A stretch of DNA of 64,000 nucleotides from Naegleria gruberi (GCA_000004985.1 GG738898.1), one strand, 5' to 3'. Shown: positions 23,440 to 44,900, numbered from the stretch's first letter. Numbers and translations are program-made. The notes: generated by a model from the sequence alone, not told the origin.

Positions 23440-25846
23440 TTATTCCAATTGATCAAAGAGATCATTATCACCAATCTTTTCATCCTCACTCTCTTCTTGA
23501 ATGACAGCAGCAATAACGGCTTCAGTGAGGAATTTCTTGGCTTCATCTTCTGTTACCTCACTTTCATCACATTCATCTTGAGTGATGAGGGAAATGTTAT
23601 TTTGTACAATGAAGGAACACCAGAAATCTTCTCTCTTACCCTTAGAATAGGATTGTTTGAGTTTCTTTAAGAAGTTATTGAACTGATTAGGTTCAGCTTC
23701 TCTGATACAACCTTCTCTCAATGTCTTGATACAGGCCAAGACTTTTTCATAGTATTGATCTTCAATAGAATCATTGACCAATTTAAATATGACAACTTGC
23801 ATTTCTTGAATGGCTTTATCGACCATATCCACATCCTTTCTGTTGAGCATTTCTGAGAAATCCTTTGTTGGATTTGTTGTCTTGACAGAGTTGGCTTGTT
23901 CCATAAATAAATTATTAAGACCAACACGTTGTTGTACTTCATTGAATTGAGCATCACTCATACCATCATAGGCACCATCCTTGAGACGTTTAACAACCTG
24001 TCCAACATGATCTGATTCCAGAAGGGCTGTGCCTTGTACATTTTCTGCTACTTCTTCCAAATTGTAAGAATCGAGTGTAATTTCATTTTCTCCCATAGCA
24101 AACCAATATTTTCTCTTTCCTAGTTTTGAGTCAGCTTCAACTTCCTTAGTTGGGAATAGTGATTTGAATTTAAGTCTATGTTCCTTAGTTTTTTCCATTA
24201 ATTTGTAATAGAATGATTCTGGATTCATTTCAGGATAACAAAACTTTGTAATGAGTGGTTCAACAGGAGGCAGTGGATCATTAGGTTTGAGAGCTCTCAC
24301 ATGAAGACAATCATAAAAGTGTTGTACAAGTGGATTATAAATACAGGTTGGTTTCATAGCTTCGGATTTTTCACCATTCTCATCTTCATCAGCATCCATC
24401 AAGTCCATTGATTTGATTAAATCTTCAGCTGCTTGAAGTTGTTCCTCAGAATGTTTAACTGTAGAGAAGGATTTGAATGGATACTCTCTGATATCTTCAG
24501 CAAATGGAAGTGCATTGAAATATAAACATTCAGAATTTGTACCAATGTGTGGGTACAAGAATCCAAGTTTAGGTTCAAGATCGTCTCTATATACATATGT
24601 AATAATCATGACCATTTCCAATTCAGAAAGGGCTCTGATAAATGATGATAATGCAATTTGTGCAAATGGATCATCTGGTTTGGCAATGAATGAATAGGTT
24701 TCTGCCATAAAGTGAGATCTATCTATATTCTTTTCATCTGTAAATCCCAATACAGTAATACCCTTAGATGATTTGTATTTGAGTGCCTTTTCGTTAACAA
24801 TATTGAAAGGAACAAAGTTTTTACCATACTTGTATGCTTTAACAGTCTTATCCTTTTCAATTTGATTATCTGGATCATCGTATGAATAGTAACATCTTTC
24901 CATTTGAACATCTCCATCACCACCTGTGTTGGCTCTTCTAGAAACAAGGGAGAGACGTTTAGCTGTTGGAAGAGAGGTCTTTTCGGTTTTTTTGTAAACC
25001 CAAACTGGTATCTTGATATTTCCTGCAATATCTAAATTTCCTCTAAAGGTTGTTCTTGACAAGACCTTTTTACTCTTGAATAGTAAAAGAGTATCGATGG
25101 CTTGTTGAATTGGAATTACAATACCACCAACATTTTTACACATATCACATAAGAAGATTTCATTTCTCAATTTTGGTGTCTTTCCAACAATCTTTCCATT
25201 ATCATCTTCAAGTTTAACTTCTGTATTTACAAAATCCAAACCAATAACATTAACTTTAACATCTTGATTCCTCATTCCTTGATAAATATTTTCTCTAGTG
25301 TCATTATCAACTGAAATTTCAGTTCCACCAGCATCTGAAACAATAACAATTCTCTTGGCATATTTACGTTTACCACATCTGTCCTTGATCATGTCTGTTG
25401 CAACAATAACAGCATCAAATAAATCACCTTCAGGTGACATTCCGATAGTGTCAATATTAATACTATCAACAATTTTAAAAAGATCCAATGATACCGTATC
25501 AATAGCTTGTTCAATATAAATATTTTCATATTCTCCTTCGTATTCATCATTGAGATGATTTTTAGTTTTCTTTGTACCAACAAGAACAAATCCTACTTCA
25601 TCCTTTGGACTATATCTCATCTGTTTCATTCGAATGATAAATAGATATTGATCGTGATGATGAATTTGGTGATGATAATGAATTTCCTATTATTAAATTA
25701 CTAACCTTCATTTTGATGAGAAGAGTAATGGCTCTTTTAGCCTTCTCAAATTCATCCCGCGATCTTGTTCCCAACGATTTACCAACATCAAATATAATAA
25801 CCAAGGCTTCTTTAGCTGGTGGAGGTGCAACCGAAGAAGCGCTCAT
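23440..25846 (-). CDS. ku80: Ku80 (XRCC5) homolog; complement(join(23440..25620,25706..25846))
   Basis: Exon 1 (MSASSVAPPPAKEALVIIFDVGKSLG...AITLLIKMK) is a vWA-like Ku N-terminus. An 85-bp intron (GTTAGT...AAACAG, 25621..25705) joins it to MRYSPKDEVGFVLVGT..., which is collinear with human Ku80 (VFAENKDEIALVLFGT, VLGF, conserved core). The C-terminus EDFWCSFIVQNNISLITQDE...EDEAKKFL matches the Ku80 C-terminal region. Total 2322 nt, in frame. Confidence 0.85.
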
Positions 25847-26123
25847 TTTTTTGTTTTTTGAATTTTTTAAATTAAAACGGATTGTTTTTATTTTCTTTTA
25901 AATGGTGGAAAATATTTGGCGCCAAAGTTTTCCTTTCAATAGTTGAACAAAAAACAATGGATTCAAGTCGGTTGGTTTATTAAGGTGGGACGAATTGAGA
26001 ACATAGAGAAATGACCGTGAAGGAGCAATCCTTGAATCAGTAAAACAAAAAAATATAGTATGAATATAGTATGAAACTATTTCTTCATCAGTTTTATTCG
26101 ATAGTACAACAAATGATGATCTG

Positions 26124-26700
26124 ATGGTCGGAATAGGTTCCCCATTTCCTGATGATATTTGTTATGAAATTGCATCATTTCTTGATTCTTGGTTTATTTT
26201 GAAAAATTGTTTATTAATTTCCAAACAATGGTTTCGAATAATCAAAGAAAATGCGAAACTTTCTCTCACCTTTACCAAATGCATCACCAACCAATCTATT
26301 GAACTATTTTCCCATAGTCCTTTTTTAAAGAATTTAATTTTCTTGAATGTTGAAAGTGTTGGAGGAAATTTCTGGAATTCTCTTTCATTGATTAAAGATT
26401 TAAAAACTTTATTCATAGGACGTGAAAATGTTTGTTTAGATAATTTGAAAATATTGAGAGAATTGAAACAGTTAACGAAACTTGAGATTAAGAAGCTGTC
26501 ATGAAGGAGCAAAGGCAATTGGTGAATTGAATCAATTGACTGAACTTGTAATTGAAAATAATGGAATTAGGAATGGGGGAGCTGGTGCTATTGGTGGATT
26601 TTCTCAATTGAAATCGCTGAATATTAAACATAATTGTTTAGATTAAGAAGGAGCCAAAATATGATAAGAGAAATGAAACAAGTCTTTTCAAATGATGAAT
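26124..26700 (+). pseudogene. F-box-like/RNI-type LRR paralog, truncated, with frameshift and premature stops
   Basis: ATG at 26124. N-terminus DDICYEIASFLDSWFILKNCLLISKQWFRIIKE is paralogous to the intact gene at 27983. The ORF stops at 26504 (LTKLEIKKLS*). The LRR continues in another frame (SCHEGAKAIGELNQLTELVIENNGIRNGGAGAIGGFSQLKSLNIKHNCLD*), then hits further stops. Confidence 0.55.
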
Positions 26701-26759
26701 TTATCCAGTGCGTTCAAGTTGAAGAGGATTTAGAATAAGAAAAGTTAGTTTATTATGAT

Positions 26760-27782
26760 TTAGACGAATTTTCCCTTTGTAAGAGAATCCATTAGTGTAT
26801 CTTGAGGTAAATTCAATTCCTTCTCAATAACTTCAACACCCATTTCGTCTTCATCTTCTTTCGAATCTATCATGTACGAATCAACTTCTTCATGAGCTTC
26901 TTGTTCCAATTCCAAACTCCATTGTTGAACAGTTCTATCATTTGAGTCGAGTGTTGTTCCTATCAATAATAATTGCATTTCCTCAATGCTTAATAAGGAA
27001 GGTGGGTTTGCAGAGTGAAACTTTCTCTCACCGAAAATCTTTTTAATTTCCTCTTCCTTTCCATGAATTGAAATATCTTCTCTTGGATTGTACAAGTTTG
27101 AAGTACTTTGACCTTTCGAATAGTTTAGATTAGTTTGAGGATTTTTTACACTCACTACCATCGTACCAGCATGTTCAATTCCAAATTGAGTTTGAATCTT
27201 GTTTGGAGATTCATTTTCTAAGAATTTCGGAAATTCAATCACATACGAAAGGTGAGTATGATTCTGATTGTGTTCAATCAATTCATACAATCCGAAAGCA
27301 AGTGGTCTACTCGAGTGAATGACTCTATCTCCTCTCGTAAAGGTTTCATAATGTTCTTCTGACAAACTTTCGTTTACAATCGAATCAATAGACGAATCTA
27401 CTTGACTCACAATAGCAAGTCTTTTCTCTCCCTGTTTAGGAAGTGTCTTCTTTGGAATAATAATCACTCTATTCTTCAATTCTCCTTGAGATTGATCTGG
27501 TTTCAGTACCATTAAGAGTTTCTGAACTTGATCCAAATTGTTGACATGTTCTTGCATGACTTTTGGCTTGTAAAAGAAGTAAATATGACCAAATTCTAAG
27601 AGTTTAACGTTGATATGTTGAGGTTGTTGATTGGGAATTTCGATTCGAGGTGATTGTTCAGTGGATTGATTCGAATAGCTGGACGATTCATGTTGTGGAA
27701 CGAGGTTGAGTGGATGTTTGGTATGCTCCTTGTTGTAGTGAGCATGTTTTGGATGATACATGTAGGGATAGGTTGGATTCAT
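26760..27782 (-). CDS. hypothetical protein (His/Gln-rich N-terminus, acidic C-terminus)
   Basis: 340-aa intron-less ORF with ATG at 27780..27782. Composition resembles neighbouring genes. No recognisable domain. Confidence 0.5.
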   Translation of the reverse strand: MNPTYPYMYHPKHAHYNKEHTKHPLNLVPQHESSSYSNQSTEQSPRIEIPNQQPQHINVKLLEFGHIYFFYKPKVMQEHVNNLDQVQKLLMVLKPDQSQGELKNRVIIIPKKTLPKQGEKRLAIVSQVDSSIDSIVNESLSEEHYETFTRGDRVIHSSRPLAFGLYELIEHNQNHTHLSYVIEFPKFLENESPNKIQTQFGIEHAGTMVVSVKNPQTNLNYSKGQSTSNLYNPREDISIHGKEEEIKKIFGERKFHSANPPSLLSIEEMQLLLIGTTLDSNDRTVQQWSLELEQEAHEEVDSYMIDSKEDEDEMGVEVIEKELNLPQDTLMDSLTKGKFV

Positions 27783-27982
27783 TTTTTTCTGGCAGTTTTT
27801 ATTAGAAATATTGAGTTTGGATTTTGAGAATTATTAGAAATTATCCTTATTTGGAAAATTCCAAAATTAGTCGTTCATCATAAATCAGAACTTATTACAA
27901 GAGAGAGGAGGATGATGCAGCTGTCAACTAATATACTATTCCTTCAACAATTAAAATTTTTATTAGAAATTATTAAAAAAAA

Positions 27983-29053
27983 ATGGACGAAACCATCACA
28001 ACCAATTCACACACCGACTCGACACATATTTTCTCCGATGATATTTGTTTTGAAATTTCCACGTTTTTAGATTCGTGGATAGTCTTGAATTATTGCACAA
28101 AAATCTCCTCACAATGGTTTCGGGTTATCAAGGAACGGTGCAAATTTTCTCTCAATTTCGAACATAAAATTAATAATGAACGAGTTGATTACTTGATGAA
28201 AAGCGAATTTTTGGATAATATTATGGAGGTTACAGTTGAGAATCCAGGATTAATTGCAGATGTTCGATTTTTACAAGCTGTGAAAAAATTAACACGGCTC
28301 TCAATTGACTATAATCGAGTTGGAGTGGAAGGAGCAAGTTTTATTGGGGAAATGAAAAATTTAACATCACTTTCAATATTATTTAATGGGATTGGACCAG
28401 AAGGAGCTAAATCAATAAGTAAATTGGAAAATCTGACAAGTCTTTTCATTAATGTCAATCAATTGGGATCAGAAGGAACAAAGTCTATAAGTGAATTGAA
28501 GCAATTGACATGTTTGGATATTAGTGGAAATCATTTGGGACCAGAGGGTACAAAGTATATTGGTAAACTGACTCAATTGACTCAATTAATTATTTGTAAT
28601 AATGAAATTTATTCAGAGAGATTAAAATTTATAGGTGAGCTTAGACAGCTGACAATTCTTAATGTCAGTTACAATTATATTGATTCAGAGGGAGCTAAAT
28701 ATCTGAGTGAAATGAAGCAATTAACCACTCTACGTATTGATTCGAATAATATTGGACCAGAAGGAGCCAAATCAATTTGTACTTTACAAAATTTAACAAA
28801 TTTAAATGTCGATTCGAATGCAATTGGAGATGAAGGAATTCTATCCATAAGTGAAAAGATGAAAAATCTCAAGTATTTGAATGCTTCCATGAATGGAATT
28901 GGAGATGAAGGAGCTCAATCAATTCTCTCAATGACTCAACTGACGAATTTGAATATAAGTTGTAACAAGATTGGAGAAAATGTATTGAAACTATTTGGTG
29001 GAATGAAACAATTGGTAATATTAGAAATAGGTTTCAATAAGAGTGATTATTAA
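27983..29053 (+). CDS. F-box-like plus RNI-type leucine-rich-repeat protein (intact member of local paralog family)
   Basis: ATG in aaaaaaaaATG context. F-box-like SDDICFEISTFLDSWIVLNYCTKISSQWFRVIKE is followed by about eleven 24-28-residue LRRs of ribonuclease-inhibitor type (LT.L.I..N.IG.EGAK.I..L). Confidence 0.75.
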   Translation: MDETITTNSHTDSTHIFSDDICFEISTFLDSWIVLNYCTKISSQWFRVIKERCKFSLNFEHKINNERVDYLMKSEFLDNIMEVTVENPGLIADVRFLQAVKKLTRLSIDYNRVGVEGASFIGEMKNLTSLSILFNGIGPEGAKSISKLENLTSLFINVNQLGSEGTKSISELKQLTCLDISGNHLGPEGTKYIGKLTQLTQLIICNNEIYSERLKFIGELRQLTILNVSYNYIDSEGAKYLSEMKQLTTLRIDSNNIGPEGAKSICTLQNLTNLNVDSNAIGDEGILSISEKMKNLKYLNASMNGIGDEGAQSILSMTQLTNLNISCNKIGENVLKLFGGMKQLVILEIGFNKSDY

Positions 29054-29596
29054 CGAATTGTATATGAACTGATGATGATTATTCCACACTTTCCATATTG
29101 TACTCTCACACACAAACATTCAAAAAATGTTCAAACGTGTTGACTTGATTGAAATGTTTTTTTGTGCGATTTCTTCACTTTCCTTAACAAGACTCATGAT
29201 TAAATAATTTATTTTTGGGTTTTTTCCCCAATTTCCGTGAAGTATTACGTAAACGTGTTAAAACACACCAAATTACCCACACACCAACGCAACACTGAAA
29301 AAAATGTTGTTCAACAATGAGACTCTTGATACAGAGAGTGTTTTTCATTGGTGTGGCATTATTTCTCTTTCGTGGATGATGATTGTGTTTTTCTTCTCTA
29401 AAAAGTCTACCCTGTTTTCCCATCATGAAAAGTTTGCCTTCTCCTTTGGTAGTCTCTTGGAAAGTGCTCGAAGGAATTCTGTAGATCGTTGAGATGGTGG
29501 GAATGTGTTGTTTTTGTGCTCGGATTCATTAGATTTATGGAAATTAGCTTGATCTTTCTATGTTTTTGCATTTGTGAGAGAGTTGTTCATAAATTG

Positions 29597-30943
29597 ATGA
29601 TGGAGATTGAGGATGGAAAAGCCAAATCATCACAAAAAGAAGAAGTGATGACTCGCTTAGAGAAATCAAGTGGAAAATTGCAGAGAACGAACGAAGCATT
29701 GCAAGAACAATTGAAACAGGAAAGAAACAAAGCAGAAGAGCAATACCAAAAGGCAAAACAAGAATTTGAGCAGATTCGTCTTGCAATAGATTCTTGTAAA
29801 AAATCCACGACAAGAAATGATCAACTATTCGCATTGTTAAAGGATGGTTTAGAACAAAAGGTTGAAATATTGCAAGAACAATTGGCTCAGGAAGTTGAAA
29901 AAACTTTGAATCTTGTTGATGATCTGGCACGCAATGAGAAGGAGTGCACTAAACATAGAAATATGAATGAGAATCTCAGTGAAAAAATCAATGAATTGCA
30001 AGATGAAAACAAATCATTGATTCAATCCTCTGAAAAAGATAAGGCAGAATTGAATCTGTTGAATCAATTGTGTGAAGAATTGAGGGAAAAGAATGAAATT
30101 GTTCAAAAGACAGTTCAACTAAATGAAGACCAATTTCAAATGCTGAAAGAACAACAAACTGAGAATTTGAAAAATCTGGAAGAAACTCGTTCTTGGTACA
30201 ATGCACTTATTTCTACAAAAGAAAGTCTTTTTGAATCACGTAAAAATTCGTATCAAAAAATAATTACCGTGCTTGAAAATCAAATTGAGAGTGCAACGAA
30301 AAATATGAAAGAACAAGAGAAGAAAAGTGCCAAATATAAAAAGGCATATTTGGAATTAAGGCAAAAAAACGAGCAGTTGGAAGGGGAAATCAAAGTTTTA
30401 ACACATGCCTCACAAGATAGAGATTTATTGAGAGACAGAGTGGTTGAATTGACCAAAACGGCTGAGAATGAAATGTTGCTTACTACTCAAAACATGGAGA
30501 AGTTAATGACAAGATTTGGTAATTTAGATGAAAAGAGCACTCAACTTGAAACAAGTGAACTCAAAGCTTGTTATGAACGTGATAGATTTGCTGAAGAAAA
30601 CAAGGAATTGAAAAACAAGGTTTCTGATTTAAATAGCAAGTACGAAACACAAATGAAATTGGTGAATGAATTGACTAGTCAACTAAAGTCCTTGAAAAAA
30701 AAGAAGAATGATTATAAGGAAAGCTCAAAAAGAAATCAAGAATTGGTTTTGGAATTGGAAGAGCAAGTCAATAGACAGAATTCTCTGAATTCAATTGCAT
30801 CACCAATTAAGGAAATTCTTACAAATATTGGAAATGATTCACAACAAGAAATTGAAGATCAATCGTTGTGCAATATTTTGTTATCTACTTCCAATCAAAA
30901 CGAAAACAACCAAAATTCACATCATAACACAACTACTGAATAA
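29597..30943 (+). CDS. coiled-coil protein (Glu/Lys/Gln-rich)
   Basis: Long ORF with heptad periodicity throughout (EALQEQLKQERNKAEEQYQKAKQEFEQIRL...). The start is chosen at ATG 29597 (MMEIEDG). The upstream in-frame stretch back to 29489 starts at a TTG and looks like leader. Start is uncertain by about 60-110 nt. Confidence 0.55.
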   Translation: MMEIEDGKAKSSQKEEVMTRLEKSSGKLQRTNEALQEQLKQERNKAEEQYQKAKQEFEQIRLAIDSCKKSTTRNDQLFALLKDGLEQKVEILQEQLAQEVEKTLNLVDDLARNEKECTKHRNMNENLSEKINELQDENKSLIQSSEKDKAELNLLNQLCEELREKNEIVQKTVQLNEDQFQMLKEQQTENLKNLEETRSWYNALISTKESLFESRKNSYQKIITVLENQIESATKNMKEQEKKSAKYKKAYLELRQKNEQLEGEIKVLTHASQDRDLLRDRVVELTKTAENEMLLTTQNMEKLMTRFGNLDEKSTQLETSELKACYERDRFAEENKELKNKVSDLNSKYETQMKLVNELTSQLKSLKKKKNDYKESSKRNQELVLELEEQVNRQNSLNSIASPIKEILTNIGNDSQQEIEDQSLCNILLSTSNQNENNQNSHHNTTTE

Positions 30944-31029
30944 TCACTGAAAATATAAAAATCCTCTCATTGTAATCTTATTCGAATCTAAATCAAAATG
31001 ATGAACTTGGCAAAAAAAATTTAAAAAAA

Positions 31030-32700
31030 ATGGCTCAACATCTACCACACGAATTATTGCACCACATTTTCACATTTCTTCCCAAACACACGGATCACGA
31101 TATTTTACGAGTCTGTAAAAATTGGCATGATTTAACAAATTATGAAATGTTTTGGTTTTCCACTTTGAAATTTCTAATAGCGCACGAATTTTACAAAATT
31201 CAACAAGAAATTGAGGAATTTAAATGGGTGATGAATGAATTGATTGATTTGGAAGTGGAGAGGAAAATGTACTTGTCAAGATTGAGATGGAAAGAGAAAG
31301 TTTTGATTATTGACAGAATGCCATTGAAAAAGAGAAGACAATTGAGTGAAATTTATGGAGATTCGTATAGGAGAGCAACTAGACAGTTTGTAGAGGAAAA
31401 TAGGAGAAGAGATTTACTGTTGGAGGTTATTCGAATGTTAACACAATATCAAATGAATGAAACTAATAAGGGAACGACAATTTGGAAGAAAGTAATCAAA
31501 TTATTAGAAAGTAATCAGAAATATTCTCTCAAGTCAATTGGAAAAATGAAATTTGGTAAATTAAGTTTAGCAGATATTTTCTCTTCGTATTTCGTGCTCA
31601 ATATTAGAAACAGAGATTATAGAACTAGAGATTTGACAGAGATTTTGGATTTTTTATTTAATAAGTGTGAAATTTCAGTACTGAAATGTATAGAGGGTTT
31701 GTTTCGAATGGGTCATTATTCGATTTTTGATAATGAGGAGCTAGGATTACTTCAAAAGTTCAAAAGAGAGTTGAGTGATCGTAAGGGATTTGGAGTTTCG
31801 AATAATTTCTTGAAAACTCTGTTTTCCCGTGCTGACTTGAGAAAGCTACAACATTTAGAGCTTTCGACCAAGTTTGTAGAGTTGGTAAAGAAACGAAACC
31901 CTGAACGATTTAGAAAATACTTACTGGAACCGCACTTTAATAAGTTCATTAGCCAAGCTAATGGATCTTGGGAATCTTTCGAATTTTATTTCAAGACATT
32001 AGAAATTCAAACATTGCCAAAGTATGAAGAAAGTTTCTTTATCAAAAAGTTACTCTCAGACGAAACTCTAAATGATATTTCAGTGTTAAGGAGAGCCACT
32101 AAGGAATTCTCTCTCAAATTAGATTCACTTCCATATTTTATTCGAAACTTTGGGAAATTCAACTATGAAATGCTATTGTTTCTTGTTGAGGAAACTAATC
32201 ATGCTGTGAATGAACCCATTTATGGATGTTCTCTGCTGTGTGAAATGATTTACAATGCACATTTGAATAATATTTCAATAGCAAATGATATTCTCTCAAT
32301 GGTGGAGAAGGGTGCAATAATTTCAATAGAAACTCAAGACGAAAGATATTCAACCGATGAAATTCTAGAATATTTTTACGAAGAAGAGGAATTTTATTTA
32401 CCAATTATGGAAATATTAGTTGATATTTGTGGAGTTAGATTTAAAAAATTGGATCATTTCATACGAAGAGTGGCTAATAATTGTCGAAACTCTAAATGTT
32501 TCTCTCCCACTGGACTAATCTCTGTAATTGAATTTGCTGGTAAATATTTAAATGTTCAATCCATTTCTACAAGAATATTTCAAGATGCTATGAATCATTA
32601 TTATGACATGTATGTGGAAGAGAAATTTAATGAAAAACAAGCAGAAGAATTCAAGAATTATATTAATGGAAAGTTTGGTGGAAATACCTTAATAAACTAA
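31030..32700 (+). CDS. F-box protein
   Basis: ATG in aaaaaaaATG context. Canonical F-box LPHELLHHIFTFLPKHTDHDILRVCKNWHDL at the N-terminus. 556-aa intron-less ORF. Confidence 0.7.
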   Translation: MAQHLPHELLHHIFTFLPKHTDHDILRVCKNWHDLTNYEMFWFSTLKFLIAHEFYKIQQEIEEFKWVMNELIDLEVERKMYLSRLRWKEKVLIIDRMPLKKRRQLSEIYGDSYRRATRQFVEENRRRDLLLEVIRMLTQYQMNETNKGTTIWKKVIKLLESNQKYSLKSIGKMKFGKLSLADIFSSYFVLNIRNRDYRTRDLTEILDFLFNKCEISVLKCIEGLFRMGHYSIFDNEELGLLQKFKRELSDRKGFGVSNNFLKTLFSRADLRKLQHLELSTKFVELVKKRNPERFRKYLLEPHFNKFISQANGSWESFEFYFKTLEIQTLPKYEESFFIKKLLSDETLNDISVLRRATKEFSLKLDSLPYFIRNFGKFNYEMLLFLVEETNHAVNEPIYGCSLLCEMIYNAHLNNISIANDILSMVEKGAIISIETQDERYSTDEILEYFYEEEEFYLPIMEILVDICGVRFKKLDHFIRRVANNCRNSKCFSPTGLISVIEFAGKYLNVQSISTRIFQDAMNHYYDMYVEEKFNEKQAEEFKNYINGKFGGNTLIN

Positions 32701-32745
32701 TAGGATTAATTACTGATTTCAACAAACTGTTTATATTTTGAATTC

Positions 32746-33948
32746 TTAAAAGTATACTGAAATAGATGACGCACTTGTCATTGTAAGAATCAATTCTTCG
32801 TCCTCTTCACTTATTTCATTATCTATCAATGAAAGACTAGATAAATGTTTCAATTCTTGTATAAGGTGGAAAGCTCCTTTTCCAATTAAATTTCCTTCAA
32901 CACTGAGGTTAAAAGTTTCCAATACATTCTGATCCTTCGCGACCAATCATGTTACTAGAAACATCAAGTTTTGTTAAATTTTCGAGTTGGCAAATGTATC
33001 TTATACCTTCCTCTCTTAATTGACAGTATGAAATATTGAGTCTTGTTAAATTGTTCAAATTACCAATGAACTGGGCACCCAAAGCACCAAATTCATTTGT
33101 TCCAATGTCAAGATCCGTCAAATTGGTTAATTTTCTTATTGATTTGGCTCCTTCTTCACTCAAACTATTATCTAACACATCCAGTGTTCTCAATTAAATC
33201 ATCTCAGATATAATTCGAGCTCCAACATCACCAATTCTACATCCTGACATTTTAAGTCTCTAAATTCTTCATTTTACTAATCAATCTCATTCCCTCAATC
33301 CCAATTTCATTGTTACTAACATTGAGGTATCTTAATTGTTCTAATTGGCTAATTGTACTTGCTCTGTCAACATTAATTCCACATTCTTCAACGTCAAGAC
33401 AGGTCAATTGCTTTGGTAGCTTTATGGATTCAATATTCATGCAATTCATACTCATTCTTAATGATTTCAATTGTTCCAGTTTTTGTAAAAACTCTCCCTT
33501 ACGAATACTATTGCAGGAAATTGATAAATGTTCCAAATTTATCATCCTTTCAAGACAATCCAAAAACAATTCACCATCAATTAGTGGCTGATCAAAGTCT
33601 CCATCAATTATTAAATCGACAATATTTTCTAAAAATTGACTCTTTAAGAGGAACGTTGCTCTTTGGTTGTCCATTTCGGAATGCAAATTAAGGCAGAGTT
33701 TTGAATGATTCCTCACCACTCTAAGCCACTGCTTGGATACCAATACAATACTATTTAATATGAACCATGATGATGATGAACTGTCGTTCATGGTTAAATA
33801 GGTTAATATTTCACTACATATTTCATCAGGAACATTAAACCCTAAACAATTAATTATACACAAAGTTATTAATACCTTAAATAATAAACAATAAACAATG
33901 AAAATTACAATTACTTGATGATTTGCTGCTTTCAATTCTAACGACCAT
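32746..33948 (-). pseudogene. F-box-like/RNI-type LRR paralog with 73-bp 5' intron, two frameshifts and one in-frame TAA (track shows three separate ORFs)
   Basis: ATG at 33946..33948 (MVVRIESSKSS) is followed by intron GTAATT...GTTTAG (33842..33914). Next comes RFNVPDEICSEILTYLT...SKQWLRVV, paralogous to 27983. The LRR reading continues across the junctions at ~33250 (KNLET/LKMSGCRIGDVGARIISEMI), ~33200 (TAA inside ...SEMI*LRTLDVLDN) and ~32930 (frame change) only by shifting frame. These cannot be introns because LRR sequence continues uninterrupted. Confidence 0.55.
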
Positions 33949-35198
33949 TTTTCTGATGATTAATTAAATATTTTTTTTATCCACTAATCTGCCGATTAAG
34001 GATCGCAGTAATGTACTAGTGATCGATATTATACTCATTGAGAATTAGGAAGTGCTAGATTGGATAGTATTAATATCATGATCCTTAATATATTCTTTTA
34101 AGATAACTTTATTTCGTCAGGTGTGTGGGAACCAAAGGTATTTAAATTGATGAGTAATCAGTGAAGTGCACAATTAATAATAATCAAATTAAACTCCAAG
34201 CCAATCAAATTATTTGTTCCAAGCTAGATAAAAATCCTAACGCAATTCTAGAATAATGGACATGTTAATTATCAAATAATATGATCAATCATTACTGTTG
34301 ATGAAAACTTGTAGTTTAAATTTACGGAACACAAAAGTTGCAAAATTACCCTGACACAATTAGTTTGGTGAGGAAATTGTTGTCGTTTTCTCAACAAAAA
34401 TCAAGATGAAAATCCAATATTATGTTCAAAATTCTATTCACAATGAAGACATCACATCTAATTCAATTTTTGCATTCTCTTTTATTTTTTAAAACAACAA
34501 AATTAACTTCAGCACTAACAATTATTATGGAACCCCTGAACAGAGCAATGCAGTGGACAACCTTCATGAAGGCTTTTCCAATATATATTATCCAACAAAA
34601 CAACAAGAAAGGAACTTTGATATTTAATGTATTTAAATGGTTGAAATGCAATTACAATCTATACAACAACATTTTCGATATTGAATATTCAAAACCCATT
34701 ATCGCTATGAAGTTGATGATATCTAACCCGATGTCATTTACTGTGGTGTCACCTTATGAAAGTCACAGCTCTTATTGTGCTTTGGTAACCGAAAATAACT
34801 CATCTCACCTGCCTTTAAATCCCTTCCGAATCTTGCCTTCCTATTTGTATTCATTTGGCCAATTTCATTCCTCAATAGAAAATTATCATTTTGCCTCAAT
34901 AAGATAATCATTAACAAAACGGAACCTATTATCAAATATTTGGTGACTTACAAAACCTCAGCGAATCAACAAGAGAAGCAAATTTCAATATCAACCATGC
35001 GAGCTTTCAGTTTCAACCTGTCAGTGTCGGAAATGCAACAGGTTAAAATCCATCATCTATCCCACCATCATGAGGCGAGTCATCCCAAATAACGACTTGG
35101 AATCGTATGAGTCACCTATTAGCTGTTTCCTTTCTTTTAACGGCATCCATTATTATCATAACCATTTCTTCATCATTAAAAAAAAATCAGAATATTAT

Positions 35199-36192
35199 AT
35201 GGCTAATACTGTACTTGGTAGCACAACCGCTGCTAAACATGCAGTTGGTTTCAACCTTTCATTGTTGGTATGTAGATTTCACTTTGTTTATTGTCTGACA
35301 CTTGCTTGCGCACTATACTTTTGACATTTGGCGTTCAATAATTTTTCACACTCCATGCGAAAATGTTTAATATACACAAATATCTATTGCGAATTCGAAT
35401 TAACAGAAAGGTGGTACTATTACCCAAACAATTATTGGTGCAATTATTACAGCTTTGGTAATTGCTTCAACCGTTGCAACCATTATCTTGGTTTCTGTTG
35501 GTGTTGGTTACAATCCACCAGTTGCGTAAGTATTATCTAATTTATTCGAATTAATTTACGAATCTAAATTCTTTTTCACAGTGCCAATGACTTTGCTTCT
35601 ACTTATAAGAGAATGCCAGTCACTGTCGATGTACTCATAAATGATAACGATCCACGTGGTGGTAATCTTACTTTGACTCAAATTGTTAATCAACCAAAGT
35701 ATGGTACTGTCAAGATCCTTTCTCGTTCCCAAGTTGTTTATCAATCCATTGGTTCTTTCTCTGGAAATGACACTTTCAGTTATGAAGTTAGTAATTCCTT
35801 TGTTACAGCCAATGCTACTGTTACTGTTCAAGTTTTGAATAGACCTCCTCAAGCTGTTCCAATCTATAAGAAGATTTCCAAGAATGCTCATAAGGCCCTT
35901 GTCGATATTTTCAATTATGTTGGTGACAATGATGAAAGAATTAGTGATATCGATAATGATGTCTTGTATGTTACTGGCTTCGCTGATCAACAAGTTATCA
36001 GTGGTAATGCTCAAAGTTTGGGATCCATTGAAGTTGACACTTACAATGGTTTCTTGTACACTCCTGTTACTGGTTTCAATGGTATTGAAAAGTTTAATTA
36101 CACAATCTCAGATGGTAATGACACTGCTTCTTCAACTGTTACTGTTGAAGTTGAAAATGATGCTCCTATTGCCGTTGATGATTACTTTAGAA
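35199..36192 (+). CDS. signal-anchored protein with bacterial-type cadherin-like tandem repeats, partial (runs into assembly gap); join(35199..35267,35407..35525,35582..>36192)
   Basis: ATG in ttatATGG context after an A-run. Exon 1 (MANTVLGSTTAAKHAVGFNLSLL) is followed by a 139-bp intron (GTATGT...AACAG). Exon 2 is a TM helix (KGGTITQTIIGAIITALVIASTVATIILVSVGVGYNPPVA), then a 56-bp intron (GTAAGT...TCACAG). Exon 3 encodes ~95-aa repeats VDVLINDNDPRGGNLTLTQIVNQPKYGTVKI...GSFSGNDTFSYEVSNSFVTANATVTVQVLN and ...FNGIEKFNYTISDGNDTASSTVTVEVENDAPIAVDDY. Confidence 0.65.
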
Positions 36193-36558
36193 NNNNNNNN
36201 NNNNNNNNNNNNNNNNNNNNNNNNNNNNNNNNNNNNNNNNNNNNNNNNNNNNNNNNNNNNNNNNNNNNNNNNNNNNNNNNNNNNNNNNNNNNNNNNNNNN
36301 NNNNNNNNNNNNNNNNNNNNNNNNNNNNNNNNNNNNNNNNNNNNNNNNNNNNNNNNNNNNNNNNNNNNNNNNNNNNNNNNNNNNNNNNNNNNNNNNNNNN
36401 NNNNNNNNNNNNNNNNNNNNNNNNNNNNNNNNNNNNNNNNNNNNNNNNNNNNNNNNNNNNNNNNNNNNNNNNNNNNNNNNNNNNNNNNNNNNNNNNNNNN
36501 NNNNNNNNNNNNNNNNNNNNNNNNNNNNNNNNNNNNNNNNNNNNNNNNNNNNNNNNNN
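36193..36558. other. assembly gap (366 N)
   Basis: Run of n characters. A 39-bp island at 36559..36597 separates it from the next gap. Confidence 1.
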
Positions 36559-36597
36559 TCTGTAAACATGACACTTGTGTGAGTATTGACCATCCCT

Positions 36598-36802
36598 NNN
36601 NNNNNNNNNNNNNNNNNNNNNNNNNNNNNNNNNNNNNNNNNNNNNNNNNNNNNNNNNNNNNNNNNNNNNNNNNNNNNNNNNNNNNNNNNNNNNNNNNNNN
36701 NNNNNNNNNNNNNNNNNNNNNNNNNNNNNNNNNNNNNNNNNNNNNNNNNNNNNNNNNNNNNNNNNNNNNNNNNNNNNNNNNNNNNNNNNNNNNNNNNNNN
36801 NN
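36598..36802. other. assembly gap (205 N)
   Basis: Run of n characters. Confidence 1.
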
Positions 36803-37999
36803 GCGAAATTGTTGGGATGTATCCATTTTCGACAGTGGAAATGATTAGAATCCAATCTAAACCATTATCCTTAATGGTTGTCACACTAATTCTCCTACCA
36901 TCATATTGAAAAGATGAACTGTTAACTTTCAATGTCAAACTTTGAATATCATTAACTTTTTTTGAGTTATTTAATCGTAAAATATCACGTTTGTCAAGCT
37001 CGTTTGCTAATCGTTCGTTTCTACTATCTATTTCAGTCATTTGAAATCGTTTTCCATCTACTATATTCGGTTGAGAAAATGAATTCGAAACTAACATTCC
37101 ATTACGCTCAACCAAGACAATATCAATACTGTTGGTGTTCATGTCTAAGTGTCTACAGACTGTATTATTGAGTAATTGATCCATGTAGAATAGATCATAT
37201 TGCATTCCAATTATTTCTTCCACAAGAATCATTTCAGTTCCATTTTTAATAAATATTGGAAAATCCAATTTAGTAACTGCTGAAATTGATGGTGTGTTGA
37301 ACAGGTAGTGAATCCAAATATCTGTCCAAACGTATTGTGGGTATGTGTATTGATTAATATACCAAGGTCTTGTCGTGCAATCATACCCTCCTTTTTCAGT
37401 TGTCGTATTCGAAATTGGTTGAAAGTATTCGTCAAAATCAGACGATTTCAGTATGAGATCAGGTCCACTAGATTGAACTCTACTTCTATTCTTTGAAATT
37501 TCCAAACTAAACAATTGTTTTTGGCTATTTCCATAGGTTATTTCAGAGAAAGTCCTCGTAGACGAAATAATTGGTGCCAATTGACTCACCACTCGTTTAT
37601 AATTCTCAGTAAAATTCCCAATTTCATTGCCATAGATGTGTTGATGTAAAAAGAGAGAAGTTCTCAGATTGGATAAAATCTGTCTCGAAGTATGTACGAA
37701 ACCTTCCACCTCCCTTACAATATTTTCTTCTCTAATTTTGGAAGTGTTTGCAAGAGCTGTTTCTCCACTTTCCAATTTTGGATTTTGATTAAATTGTTGA
37801 AAACTAACCTCGAATAAATAATTATCAGCATGCACCCAATGCAGACGAATGTTTGTATGAGGAAAATTGAAAGGAAAATATTTTGAATGGTGTTACATTT
37901 CGAACAGGGAATTTTCCTTGGTGAAACAATTGTTTTTTCAATGTCGTCCGATTTTTCACAGGAGGACGATTCTGGTGGTGAGGTTATGCTTGTCTGCAT
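36803..37999 (-). CDS. signal-anchored protein with extracellular Cache (dCache-like) sensor domain, partial (3' end lost in gaps); complement(join(<36803..37767,37809..37999))
   Basis: ATG at 37997..37999 in a tacaaaaaaaATG context (track start 38059 is a GTG). Exon 1 is MQTSITSPPESSS... plus a TM helix (IFLSIFLIQTFVCIGCMLIIIY). A 41-bp intron (GTTAGT...GGAAAG, 37768..37808) is phase-consistent. Exon 2 encodes an extracellular domain carrying the Cache hallmark RPWY (CTTRPWYINQYTYPQYVWTDIW). The ORF runs into gap 36598..36802. Confidence 0.55.
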
Positions 38000-38994: not shown

Positions 38995-41900
38995 TTAAAT
39001 GTTGAATTCTCCTTCTAAGAATGTGTAAATAATTNNNNNNNNNNNNNNNNNNNNNNNNNNNNNNNNNNNNNNNNNNNNNNNNNNNNNNNNNNNNNNNNNN
39101 NNNNNNNNNNNNNNNNNNNNNNNNNNNNNNNNNNNNNNNNNNNNNNNNNNNNNNNNNNNNNNNNNNNNNNNNNNNNNNNNNNNNNNNNNNNNNNNNNNNN
39201 NNNNNNNNNNNNNNNNNNNNNNNNNNNNNNNNNNNNNNNNNNNNNNNNNNNNNNNNNNNNNNNNNNNNNNNNNNNNNNNNNNNNNNNNNNNNNNNNNNNN
39301 NNNNNNNNNNNNNNNNNNNNNNNNNNNNNNNNNNNNNNNNNNNNNNNNNNNNNNNNNNNNNNNNNNNNNNNNNNNNNNNNNNNNNNNNNNNNNNNNNNNN
39401 NNNNNNNNNNNNNNNNNNNNNNNNNNNNNNNNNNNNNNNNNNNNNNNNNNNNNNNNNNNNNNNNNNNNNNNNNNNNNNNNNNNNNNNNNNNNNNNNNNNN
39501 NNNNNNNNNNNNNNNNNNNNNNNNNNNNNNNNNNNNNNNNNNNNNGAGTGTGGATAGGAACAGGATTTTCATAGTGATGATGTTCCATATGTAATTCCAC
39601 ATCTGCTGATGAAATTATTGGCTTGTGATGAGAATCATCTTCCACTTGTGGAGTTTGTGGAATTTGTTCCTCTCCTTCCCATGCTCGTTTCACATTGGCA
39701 ACAAATGTTGTTGGAATACCAGTTGCTTGTTGCATAGTACCATCCACTTTGAGTGTTCTTGTTGATGATTGCTTCTCAAAGAGGTTACTAATATTGTACG
39801 TAGTGGTGGTTGTGGTGGCTGTGGTAGCTGTGGTGGCAGGTCTTTCTGAAATACAGTCTTGTGCATTCAAACTTTCCAAATTAACTTTAGAATTAATTGG
39901 TAGGATACTATTGATAGAGTATTTGAGTGATCTTGAAGTTGCTGGTGTTGATGGTTTAGTTGATGATTGACTGTAAATAGAACTAGATGGTTGAATAACA
40001 TGATGGTCAATCAAGTCTATGGAATCAACAACTTGTTGTGGAACAACCGAATTCTTCTTAATCAGGTCCAAATTCAATTCCTTGATAGAAATGACAGAAT
40101 TTGCAGTGGATGGCCTCTTGTCTTCCTCTTCAGTTGGACGAGTTGGTGTAGATGGTATTTCTTGATCGGGATTATATTCCTTTCTAGGAATGTAAAAATT
40201 TCCTTCAATATCTTCATGACTTGGAACAGCAATTTCACTTTCGTCACCATAATGTTTCTTTGAAGGAAGCTTAATCTTTTGTGGTTTGAGGTCATCATGA
40301 GTAACATAGGACAAGTGACGAAGAAGTTTTGGAATAGGACGTGGTCGAATAGGTCTGACCGGTCCAGAACCTTCCTTTGGGTTGGTGGAACCATGCTTAT
40401 TCTTTGAATTCTTGGTATTTCTCTTTCTCATAAAGAAACATACAAGGAAAAGCAACAAGAACATGCAGGACAATCCACATACTATGGCTGCTGAAAACAC
40501 AGCTGCTGCAACGTACATGTACGAGTAGTGAGAAACTGTGGCAGTCTGGATGACAAAGACATTGGTAAAGTGAGAACATTTACAATAGGCATGTGTATCA
40601 TTCTTCAGTTGGAGGGAACATGAGTAGGTAACTTCAGTAGTTCCATCTAAAAAGTCTGCACATGCATAACTGTCTGTTTCCTCTGTAAAATCGAATGAAC
40701 TTGCTGTACTAGATGTAAGAGTACTTGTAGTATTGATGGGAATAATGTAAATGAGGCCATCTTCCTTCATAGGAACACTCAAGTCCGTGAATTCAACCGA
40801 GACAATTGGAGAAATAAGACTTGACGTTCTAGTTGTCGAGGCAGAAAGTTTTTGTGAAAGTTTTAGCTTTCTATCAAGAGAAAACACATCATCTGTTACT
40901 GTCATTACGTACGTGAATGGTTTTTTAACAAGTGATGATACCTTATTTTCAAAAACAAAGAAATTGTCTGGAATTAGAACAGAAGTAGATCTTTCAGAGT
41001 CAGTAATGATATTCTCATAATCATAAATGGTACTTTTACCCATAATCATGGAGAAGAATGGTCCTTTGGTTCTAGTAATAGTACGAGAAATGTACATGTC
41101 TCTGGTTTGAAGATTTGACGACATTTTGAGTGCGGATAATAATTTTCTAGAATTGGAAGTTTGGTCAGTAATGTACTGTCTTTCCATAATGTAGTCATGG
41201 ACAGATTCAACACAAGCATTCAATAGGTTTTGCACACCTGGAGATAATTTGATTTTTCCAGAATCTTGGGCAGTTGTTAAAAACCTATTCAGGGTGCATA
41301 ATGCCTCTGAAATTGTCTTGGAATTGAGGAAATGATAATTAACAAGGATTGAATCAACAGCAAATGAGAGTAGAGAAATGTAATCCTCATTCAAACCATC
41401 AGTCTTATTCATACTTGTAGTAATATCATTTAGGACAGTTAATTTGCTCTTTTGGATGTTAGAAAAATCTCTAATGGAGGTTTCACAATGAGTACCAATA
41501 TATCCATCAGCACACTTGCATTCGCCTGAAACTTCTACACCACTTATACATTGAAGATACTTGGTTGATCTTTCATTTATGGAACGCTTAAATGATAAAT
41601 CTCCAAGGGTTTCTTTCAATAGAACCGAATCTGTTCTAGAAGTAGAGGCAGATTGATAGATGCTCTTACTGAAATGACCTTCGGACATGTAGGTTGCACT
41701 CACCCCTGACCAAGTCGATACAATTTCTTGAACTTGTTCAATGTCTGTTACTGTTGGTTTGGAAATTGTAATATTCTTCTCCATAAGAGTTGTACCGCCT
41801 GTGACAGTATTGATAATTTCAAAGAAACAAGTCACTGTATCACCATAGAATGGTGCAGGTAGTTTGGAGGCAAACACTTCACCAAGGTTGTACAGATAAA

Positions 41901-44900
41901 TCTTGGATCCTGATCTATCATCCAAAAAGCCATACTTAAAGTCAATATTTTCATCTGGATTTTTACAATTGGTACAATAGAAATCAAATTCAGTTTCAAG
42001 TGCAATACCTGTTGATGGATTAATGGAGCAATCACATGGTTTTGGAATGGAAGCCATTGAGAATGCATACGCTGTTCTCACAGTAACACCAGAAGAAGTA
42101 TCTCTTGCTGCAATAGTAAGAGTATTGGTTGAACCCTGCACAAGCAAGGTTGTATCTATGACTCCTGTCACCATTTCTGCAGCACCAACTTGCTGTACTA
42201 TGAATTTAGACTTGTCAAGAATCATTCCATTGAGAACCCATGTGGTTTCTGTGGAGGAAGTTATTTCTGATGAGATTAAAGTTTGAACGGAAAGTTTTTG
42301 CCCAGGAATCAAGTATTGAGTAGTAGGATTAATATCAAGGATATTCACCACAGGTGGAATATTATTAAAGTAAACAATGGTGGACTTTTCCACAATTCTG
42401 TCAGTTTTGGAGACTCTTAATCGAAGTTGAAGTGATGAAGGAACAATCATGCTTCCAAACAGGGCTGAATCAATGGTGAATAGCTTGGCTTTTGTGCTTG
42501 AAATGGATCGAAGCAAACTGAGCAAATCAGGATTGCCACTATCTAAGCAACTCCATGTCCATGTTTCCACTGATTCATAATTGATGGCATCCTCTGGATC
42601 ACTGTATTCCACTTTAATGACTGTATATGTCTTTCTGGATTCTAATTGAACAAGATTTAGATAGAGGTCTGGAGATTTTGTTGTCAATGTCACAGTAGAG
42701 GTTGAGGAGAGTGTTGGATTTGAAGCATAGTAAGCTTTCACTGTGAATGAGTAGCTCACACTTCCAAAAGTTCTCAATCTAGAAATGTACAAATTGTTAA
42801 ACTTGTCTACAGTGAATTCTATGGCAGGCCCTGATGTTTGAGCCCAATCAATTGTAACAGATTCTGATGCACATGTTGACTGAGTAACAACCTTCTTGAT
42901 TGAAGAAGGAAAATCTGTTGTGAGCTTTTCAACCAAGGATGGAGCCATCACTAAAGGAAGAGGTTTCTCAGACTTGACAAATTCCCTCGAATATACATAA
43001 GGACTAATAGTATTCAATGAAGGGCTATGGACCTGAAGCATCATTCTATATCTTCCAGCTGGAAGTGATGCTTCCAACTTGATAATAGCTTGATTGGGAT
43101 AACTATTAGATACAATTTCAAAGGTAGTTGCATCGAGTAAGGACCAATAATAGCTCAATTGCTTTCCATCATTGGAGTGGCTCAGAGTGCCATCTACACT
43201 AATTTCATCACACGAACTAAACATGTCTATATTGGCCATACTAATGAAGGCAGTTGGGGTGTTATTCTGTAAGGGCATGACAACTGGAATGGAAATATAT
43301 TCCTCTCTGGTTGTTAAGTTATTGTATCTATCGTAGACGAGTGTATTCAATTTGATTGATTGACCACTTTCTAATGTATAATCAATTGAACCAAAAGTGA
43401 TCATGAAAGCATAGCTTGCCTTATTCAAATATTTACATTTCACATTAGAGAAGGAACCATAAACATTTCTGGACCTATCTTCTGAACTGATAAGATTCGA
43501 GCACGGAATTTCCACACCAGTAAATGCTGTTGGGAGGTTGAGTTTAAATACTAATCCAGAAAAATCGGAAAGAATAGTGGCAGGTCCTTCAATCTTGGTT
43601 GCACAATTAATTCCATAATAGCCATTCAAACAAGTGTCACATAAGGAGCCATTCCAGAATCCACGTTCAAAACTTGAATAACATTTGCAAGTCAAATCAG
43701 ATTTACATTCTCCATTATTGAAACAATTATTTGCACAAGTACTATTTACAACAGTTGTTGGAGTACTGCTTGAATTATTGCTAGTATTGCTAGTTGCATT
43801 GTTTGAAATCGGTGGAACTATAACCTCGTTACTTGTGTTGTTTGTTGGAGTGGTTGAGTTTTCATTGGGAATGGTAATGTTTGGATGTAATTGTTCTGAA
43901 CAATTAAATCCCAAGTATCCATCCTTACATTTACAAGTGTCAAAATCAGTACACTGACCATTACCAGAACATACTAACTCAGATGTGGATTTAACAGAAA
44001 AGCAAGTTGTGAAATTACAGTTTGGTCCAAAATATGGCAAGTTACAGTCACAATGATTGAAAGATTCACACCTACCACGGGATTGACAAACAAGGGATTC
44101 ATTACTCAATACACCAAAACAACTTGTCACAGAGCAATCACTTCCAAAGCTATTTGGTTCACATTCACAAGTGTCCAAGTCTGAACAAACTCCTCTTTGA
44201 GAACAAACAGTCATATCTAACTTGGATTTACCGTAGCAATAAAAGTGAGAGCAATCTGGGCCAGAGTATCCTTTGTTGCAGACGCACGTATCATGACTTG
44301 TACAACTACCACGGCCAGTACACGTCTCAGAGCTATTGGACGATTTTGAAAAACATGTAGTCAACTCGCAATTCATTCCAAAATAGTTTTCAGCACATTC
44401 ACATTGGTCGAACTCAACACATTTTCCTCTGGAATTACACACAGAAGAGGAATTTGATGGAATATTGTGGCATAGAGGAATTTCACAATTAGATCCAGTA
44501 TATGAAGAATTGCAAGAGCAATGATTTAAGGTGGAACAATTTCCTCTTGAATTGCATACATTTGGATCATGAGAAGAAATTCCAAAACATGTAGTGTACT
44601 GACACCAAGGTCCTGCATACTCTGATGGACAATGGCACTCATCAACCTTTGAGCAATTTCCAACAGAATTACATACTTTGGAAGAGTTTGAGGCAATTCC
44701 AAAACATGTAGCCAACTCGCAATTTCTTCCTGTATACTTTTCATTACATGTACAATTATCTGGTGAATGGCAAGGGCCGTGATAGCTACAAACTGAAGAA
44801 TTACTATCCTTAATACCAAAGCATAGAGAACCAAAGCAATTATCACCATAAGAGCCGTGGTTACAAATACATGTATTCGAATCGGTGCATGAACCATGTC

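Follow-up and report, generated by a model that had tools for sequence, protein, structure and literature searches.

The 64,000-nucleotide stretch of Naegleria gruberi DNA studied here (GCA_000004985.1, GG738898.1; called the window throughout, and numbered 5' to 3' from its first letter) holds, within 8 kb, three related genes, which we designate copies A, B and C, and a further gene, at position 31030, that encodes an F-box protein. Our results indicate that the three copies are very probably anciently diverged members of a family restricted to Naegleria, in which an F-box is combined with leucine-rich repeats (LRRs) of the GALA/CC type, that copy B is intact, and that copy C is, and copy A very probably is, a pseudogene of the non-processed kind arising from ordinary turnover. 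A first-pass annotation of the window had described the copies as homologous F-box-like and LRR genes, one intact and two decaying, and in this respect tblastn and the analysis of the reading frames bear it out. What we see is a large F-box family, specific to its lineage, in the normal course of turnover, whose "death" side is documented in this cluster and whose "birth" side is not visible here in any recent form.

A divergent F-box joined to GALA-type repeats

When copy B was compared with the whole window by tblastn, copy A was recovered at 26073-26658 on the + strand (E 5.8e-21 for the N-terminal 143 amino acids) and copy C at 33830-32918 on the - strand (E 3.8e-24), and the same search returned no further family copy. 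The N-terminal motif said to be common to the three genes is confirmed, with the correction that copy C reads QWLRVVR and not QWFR. About 20 Naegleria proteins carry it, with the consensus FxDDICxEILSFxxDxxFIxxxCxLVSKQWxNVIxERxKL, and is present in N. gruberi, in N. lovaniensis and in environmental proteins. Among 19 aligned family N-termini, 14 individually match the Pfam F-box or F-box-like models (best 1.3e-7). A profile built from the 19 sequences gave weak matches in the PDB, seven of the nine being F-box proteins (FBXO42, FBXW11, beta-TrCP, FBXL2, Cdc4). Several members of the family reach the Pfam F-box threshold; copies A (F-box-like, E 0.0023, 18.1 bits) and C (F-box-like, 2.6e-4, 21.1 bits) stay below the cut-off of 24.3, and copy B has no match. 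Judged from these comparisons, the family motif is best read as a divergent F-box.

The repeats that follow have a 24-residue period, with the signature NxIGxEGAKxI and the consensus LTxLxIxxNxIGxxGAKxI. Pfam finds LRR_8 in copy A (3e-6) and LRR_6 in copies B (1.7e-35) and C (8.7e-14). By sequence, the best solved relative of the family is the Ralstonia GALA protein RipG4 (9j7j; phmmer 4e-35), and no ribonuclease inhibitor (RI) protein occurs among its top 60 PDB sequence matches. In copy B the strands are spaced at 24 residues over 11 repeats, as is typical of GALA/CC-type LRRs. An RI-type assignment is ruled out by this period, since repeats of the RI type are by turns 28 and 29 residues long. 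The "RNI-LRR" label given earlier was thus loosely right as far as LRRs and a horseshoe fold are concerned, but not as to the RI type, the pattern being GALA/CC.

Copy B is a single open reading frame (ORF) of 356 codons, a length expected by chance with a probability of about 1e-12 at the base composition of the window. Its AlphaFold model (predicted local distance difference test, pLDDT, 88.8; predicted template modelling score, pTM, 0.86) contains 11 beta-strands spaced at 24 residues (one repeat has 25), which make 11 strand-helix units, so that the earlier description of an intact gene with about 11 LRRs stands. Ahead of the first LRR strand the model places three helices, at residues 21-28, 31-36 and 43-52 (pLDDT 54-86), that is, the three-helix F-box fold in front of a substrate-binding domain. 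Searched with Foldseek, the model matches FBXL17-SKP1 (template modelling, TM, score 0.71-0.73) and FBXL2-SKP1 (TM 0.72) over nearly its full length, and RipG4, the best solved match by fold as well, with 1.4e-16; the RNase inhibitor is also among the matches. Architecture, sequence and predicted fold make a substrate receptor of an SCF (Skp1-Cul1-F-box) complex the most likely function of copy B: its F-box would dock on Skp1, and its LRR arc would bind the substrate to be ubiquitinated.

Next in rank to the Naegleria proteins, copy B matches bacterial LRR proteins from metagenome-assembled genomes, among them a Solimicrobium protein (34% identity over 73% of B) and one from an alphaproteobacterium (41%), as well as many planctomycete proteins of the "TIGR02996 family". 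By sequence similarity, the LRR subtype of copy B would be common to amoebae and environmental bacteria.

The N-terminal ORF of copy A is matched at E<=1e-3 by only 39 clusters (50% identity) in 1.84 billion proteins; all the named clusters belong to N. gruberi or N. lovaniensis, and some carry the UniProt label F-box domain-containing. The family thus appears, from these matches, to be restricted to Naegleria and its relatives. Our literature searches found nothing on the metagenome project PRJEB11402 and nothing specific on a Naegleria F-box/LRR family, and, as far as they showed, a Naegleria-restricted family of F-box and GALA-type LRR proteins is apparently undescribed as such.

Decay of copies A and C

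The decay of copy C could be followed by comparison with a second strain. A homology search with the product of the F-box gene at 31030 led, through a 98%-identical fragment, to a 2505-bp ENA metagenome contig (L001; sample ERZ929261, Illumina/MEGAHIT, k127). It aligns to 31455-33958 at 97.1% identity and so spans copy C in full, together with the 3' portion of the F-box gene. In accordance with the first-pass annotation, copy C is inverted and has frameshifts, a nonsense codon and a 5' intron (Table 1); the intron is 73 nt long, and its GT..AG borders are kept in both the window and L001. At the frameshift near 33256 the two sequences are identical, which shows that this lesion is genuine and older than the split of the two strains. 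It also settles the suspicion of an assembly error at the ttaaaa site near 33245, because the contig is an independent one. Other lesions belong to one strain only. The window has a nonsense codon and a pair of deletions of its own; where these deletions lie, the 14 nt are still present in L001, which encodes a regular LRR there (GREGSECIANKLKLLTSLSVEGNSIGKGAF). L001 in turn has a GAA to TAA change at 33677 and a 7-nt deletion at 33293. Since one frameshift is shared and each strain has private lesions, copy C is no product of faulty assembly but a true pseudogene whose decay continues: after one ancestral lesion, the two lineages decayed independently.

The substitutions agree with this. Between copy C and L001 there are 5 synonymous and 13 nonsynonymous changes, plus 2 nonsense changes, and omega (pN/pS, the ratio of nonsynonymous to synonymous divergence) is 0.65; for the F-box gene pS is 0.053, pN is 0.009 and omega is 0.17, and this gene is under purifying selection. 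The ratio of nonsynonymous to synonymous changes in copy C is compatible with neutrality (p=0.38) and unlikely under an omega of 0.17 (p=0.006). Four indels separate the strains in the roughly 1.1 kb of the copy C exon, and none in 1243 nt of the F-box gene. Copy C thus combines real lesions, relaxed constraint and a retained gene structure, as a non-processed pseudogene does. The two sequences themselves give the order of events: the frameshift near 33256 arose before the two sampled strains separated, and each strain then gathered its own lesions under relaxed selection. For strains about 3% apart, with one lesion in common and the others different, copy C offers a small and clean case of a pseudogene early in its decay.

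Copy A, annotated earlier as truncated and frameshifted, has two frameshifts and an in-frame TAA, and it stops after about 4.5 LRRs. In the six-frame translation a first open piece (26124-26504, 126 amino acids from the ATG at 26124) is continued in another frame at 26482-26646 and then in the third frame up to a stop at 26736-26738, and the copy ends 22 nt from the stop of a convergent neighbouring gene. Both copy B and an N. gruberi protein (P0004) align to it by tblastn in one alignment that runs over frames +1 and +2 and contains an internal stop. The LRR register is unbroken across the first frameshift (LTKLEIKK / CHEGAKAIGEL), and this break is therefore a lesion of plus or minus 1 nt rather than an intron. 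Because the register continues across each of the lesions in a clean assembly, we regard copy A as very probably a pseudogene. Frameshifts and nonsense mutations account for the loss of function of C and, very probably, of A.

Just upstream of copy A, at 26055-26076, lies an 11-nt tandem duplication (ATAGTATGAAT / ATAGTATGAAA). Each of its units has an out-of-frame ATG, and the ETISSS that follows the second of these (26071) aligns with ETITTNS of copy B. Tentatively, and on the basis of these few residues, copy A may have lost its original start codon.

Relationships among the copies and alternative explanations

The term "locally duplicating" had been applied to the cluster together with birth-and-death evolution. 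The second half of this, the death of copies, is upheld by copy C with its strain-specific lesions, but local duplication is not. The reconstructed proteins are 35% identical between A and B and 32% between B and C, and all three pairs fall within 32-35%, which, with the tree, leads us to reject a recent tandem duplication. In a neighbour-joining (NJ) tree of the non-repetitive N-terminal 95 amino acids (100 bootstrap resamplings), copy A groups with the N. gruberi proteins P0004, P0006 and P0017, copy C groups with a protein that we call P0003, and copy B falls into a loose group with C and P0003; in most resamplings, the sequence nearest to each copy is not another copy of the window. The protein P0004 is 42% identical to copy A and 47% to copy B. 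The nearest N-terminal relative of copy C, P0003, is an intact gene of 367 amino acids at 24-1127 on L002, a 2114-bp contig from the same ENA metagenome as L001 (ERZ929261), and it is absent from the window; from its place on another contig it follows that the same genome, or one almost identical to it, has intact relatives at other sites.

If tandem duplication were active at this site, and A and C had recently been copied from B and failed, this would account for the occurrence of three members of the family, and of a further F-box gene, within 8 kb and for named relatives that are all from Naegleria. Such a reading is nevertheless unlikely, in view of the low identities, of the fact that both A and B resemble N. 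gruberi proteins more than they resemble one another, and of the nearest N-terminal relative of C lying on another contig. Moreover, A, B and C are separated by unrelated genes (an opposite-strand gene for 340 amino acids, a coiled-coil gene and the F-box-only gene), and C is inverted. In a birth-and-death array neighbours would be one another's closest relatives, which is not what we find. Still, three members of a genus-restricted family within 8 kb are improbable by chance, and for this reason they probably reflect an old local origin; from the sequences compared, the cluster would be at best an old array and not an active duplication site.

Could the broken frames of A and C be sequencing or assembly errors, such as homopolymer indels, in two genes that are in truth intact? 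Two of the breaks do adjoin short A/T runs (GACTTAAAATG at about 33250 and AACTTTTAACC at about 32915), and the search of 1.84 billion proteins gave no independent confirmation of copy A. For copy C the idea is refuted by L001, which matches the site near 33250 exactly and has different lesions of its own. The break at 32903-32919 is a difference of 10 plus 4 nt, not a homopolymer slip, and nonsense codons are not indel errors. For copy A an assembly error is improbable because long ORFs without a break add up to 42.4 kb in the window, one of them of 15.9 kb; five or more indel or stop errors in 1.8 kb are on this account very unlikely. Taken over both copies, we consider this explanation very improbable. 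Nor do we give any real credence to the proposal that A and C are functional and that their lesions are bypassed by small introns, by readthrough or reassignment of stops, or by programmed frameshifting. Copy C has one genuine small intron, and Naegleria introns are short, but the LRR register runs through every lesion, so that splicing would destroy a repeat, and no lesion is bracketed by a GT..AG pair of plausible length. As to stops, TAA is the commonest true stop in the window and ends 11 of its 17 long ORFs. The lesions also differ in site between strains, and the 7-nt deletion and TAA of L001 fall inside the part of copy C that is open in the window.

We return to the interpretation favoured here, of an old family with one intact and two decaying members, against which several observations weigh. 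For locus A, HMMER with the copy A ORF found no orthologue among 1.84 billion representatives that could serve as a second sequence, and returned paralogues only, at no more than 61% identity over 49 amino acids. For copy B, the N-terminus taken alone has no Pfam F-box match at E<=0.1 and a pLDDT of only 54-86, and Skp1 binding by B is thus no more than putative. In copy C, the first approximately 205 codons (the F-box and four degenerate repeats) are open in the window strain, being broken in L001, and a truncated product with an F-box and four LRRs might, to judge from that reading frame, conceivably be made in the window strain. Lastly, the copy C exon differs from L001 by only 1.8%, compared with 5.3% at synonymous and 5.1% at four-fold sites of the F-box gene (p=0.004), as if it were constrained. 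However, divergence between the window and L001 is U-shaped along the contig, falling from 3.6-4% at either end to 0.8-1.6% in between, regardless of coding status, and substitutions along copy C are strongly heterogeneous (11/233, 3/629 and 6/233; p=1.4e-4). Given the U shape, we no longer take synonymous sites of the F-box gene as the neutral standard for copy C. The low divergence is more likely due to a mosaic ancestry, through recombination between strains, or to errors at the ends of the contig than to constraint.

Comparison with known systems

The closest architectural parallels of the family are the FBXL-type receptors, such as human FBXL2, FBXL17 and Skp2, in which an N-terminal three-helix F-box is directly followed by an LRR arc, as in the predicted structure of copy B. 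There are clear differences, however: the F-box of the window family is divergent, with (F/V)(S/P)DDIC.EI in place of LPxE, the repeats have 24 residues rather than the 26 of the Cys-containing FBXL type, and no FBXL of animals, plants or fungi is orthologous to the family at the level of sequence. With RI-type LRR proteins the resemblance is limited to the horseshoe alpha/beta fold and to the Pfam LRR_6 model, which matches window copies; the RI repeats alternate in length, unlike those of this family.

Large F-box families with fast turnover, birth-and-death evolution and many pseudogenes are known from plants and nematodes. The family described here resembles them in being lineage-restricted, expanded and physically clustered, with pseudogenes beside intact members, and differs in that the window has no recent duplicate, so that only the loss side is documented.

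The repeats themselves point to another group. GALA-LRRs form a branch of the CC-LRR subfamily and occur in the GALA/RipG type III effectors of Ralstonia solanacearum and in "Gala" proteins of Legionella (Kajava et al. 2008, PMC2244805). As is predicted of the window genes, the GALA/RipG proteins combine an F-box with 24-residue LRRs, and they have in common with the window genes an Asn at position 3, Ile-Gly at positions 5-6 and Gly-Ala at positions 9-10 (PMC2244805). They are, however, effectors that bacteria secrete and that imitate F-box proteins of the host, whereas the genes of the window are the eukaryote's own, with a spliceosomal intron in one of them and with Ku80 and a DOCK-family gene nearby. 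The origin proposed for the bacterial effectors in 2008 was acquisition from plants. One may ask whether an amoebal family of F-box and GALA-LRR proteins was instead their eukaryotic source, its rapid gains and losses, seen in the differing null alleles of the two strains, reflecting an arms race with intracellular bacteria; if so, the bacterial GALA effectors came from Naegleria-type amoebal hosts and not from plants. We think this improbable. The family may nonetheless be of interest for effector mimicry between amoebae and bacteria.

In practical terms, the fitting annotation is pseudogene for A and C, F-box/LRR (GALA-type) protein for B and F-box-only protein for the gene at 31030. The cluster opens no long-standing question.

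Genomic setting

The product of the gene at 31030, which was rightly placed between the copies (it lies between B and C) as a canonical F-box gene, exceeds the gathering cut-offs of both Pfam models (F-box-like 34.6 bits, 1.6e-8, cut-off 24.3; F-box 26.2 bits, 7.1e-6, cut-off 20.5). The only homologues detected were its counterpart on the ENA contig (P0184, 98%) and the N. gruberi F-box protein NAEGRDRAFT_70409 (25%). It is an F-box-only gene, very probably functional, that belongs to a family different from and unrelated to that of A, B and C, and its location among them is probably coincidental.

Table 1. Positions of the three copies, their lesions and neighbouring genes in the window
Feature	Position	Strand	Remarks
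Ku80	23440-25846	-	small intron
Copy A, probable pseudogene	26071..26738	+	F-box-like/LRR family; about 4.5 LRRs remain
Copy A, F-box-like motif	26142..26252	+	PFPDDICYEIASFLDSWFILKNCLLISKQWFRIIKEN
Copy A, frameshift 1	26490..26502 (between 26489 and 26503)	+	frame +1 to +2
Copy A, in-frame TAA	26644..26646	+	at the x position of NCLD-stop-EGAK
Copy A, frameshift 2	26659..26661	+	EGAK / MIREMKQV
340-amino-acid protein gene, intact	26760-27782	-	between copies A and B; weak DUF3105 match only
Copy B, intact, 356 amino acids	27983-29053	+	predicted divergent F-box, then 11 LRRs of 24 residues
Copy B, predicted divergent F-box	28028-28138	+	residues 16-52
Coiled-coil protein gene, intact, about 450 amino acids	29598-30943	+	no informative domain
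Canonical F-box gene, 556 amino acids	31030-32700	+	F-box at residues 3-43 (nt 31036-31158); without LRR; rest no known domain
Copy C, unprocessed pseudogene	32746..33948	-	exon 1 33948-33915 (34 nt), intron 33914-33842, exon 2 33841-32746
Copy C, F-box-like motif	33836-33708	-	
Copy C, frameshift at about 33256	33252..33258	-	GAG A / CTT AAA ATG; yields stop TAA 33254-33252; L001 identical
Copy C, nonsense TAA	33194..33196	-	only in the window; CAA (Gln) in L001, fitting the EMxQL repeat position
Copy C, paired deletions (10 nt and 4 nt)	32903..32919	-	private to the window, jointly frameshifting; from comparison with L001
EGF / teneurin-type EGF-repeat protein	38995-54945	-	one unbroken ORF, 5316 amino acids (15.9 kb)

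The whole window has 33.5% G+C, a high gene density and few, short introns, and its unbroken ORFs of at least 300 amino acids add up to the 42.4 kb mentioned above. Its proteins find their best matches in Naegleria gruberi, at an identity of only 25-47%, and exact look-ups of 10 of them, and of copy B and the F-box protein, returned no identical entry. The genes are eukaryotic, and the window has the character of a Naegleria-like (heterolobosean) amoeba. Besides the genes listed in Table 1, it encodes a PAS-adenylate cyclase, a MutY-like glycosylase and a DOCK-family protein. The long ORF at 38995-54945 encodes a giant repeat protein of extracellular type. Between 34000 and 38000 the G+C content is very low (24-26%), long ORFs overlap on both strands, and one on the + strand (35613-36848) matches bacterial Ig (Big_9) and cadherin-like domains; this zone is probably repetitive coding sequence.

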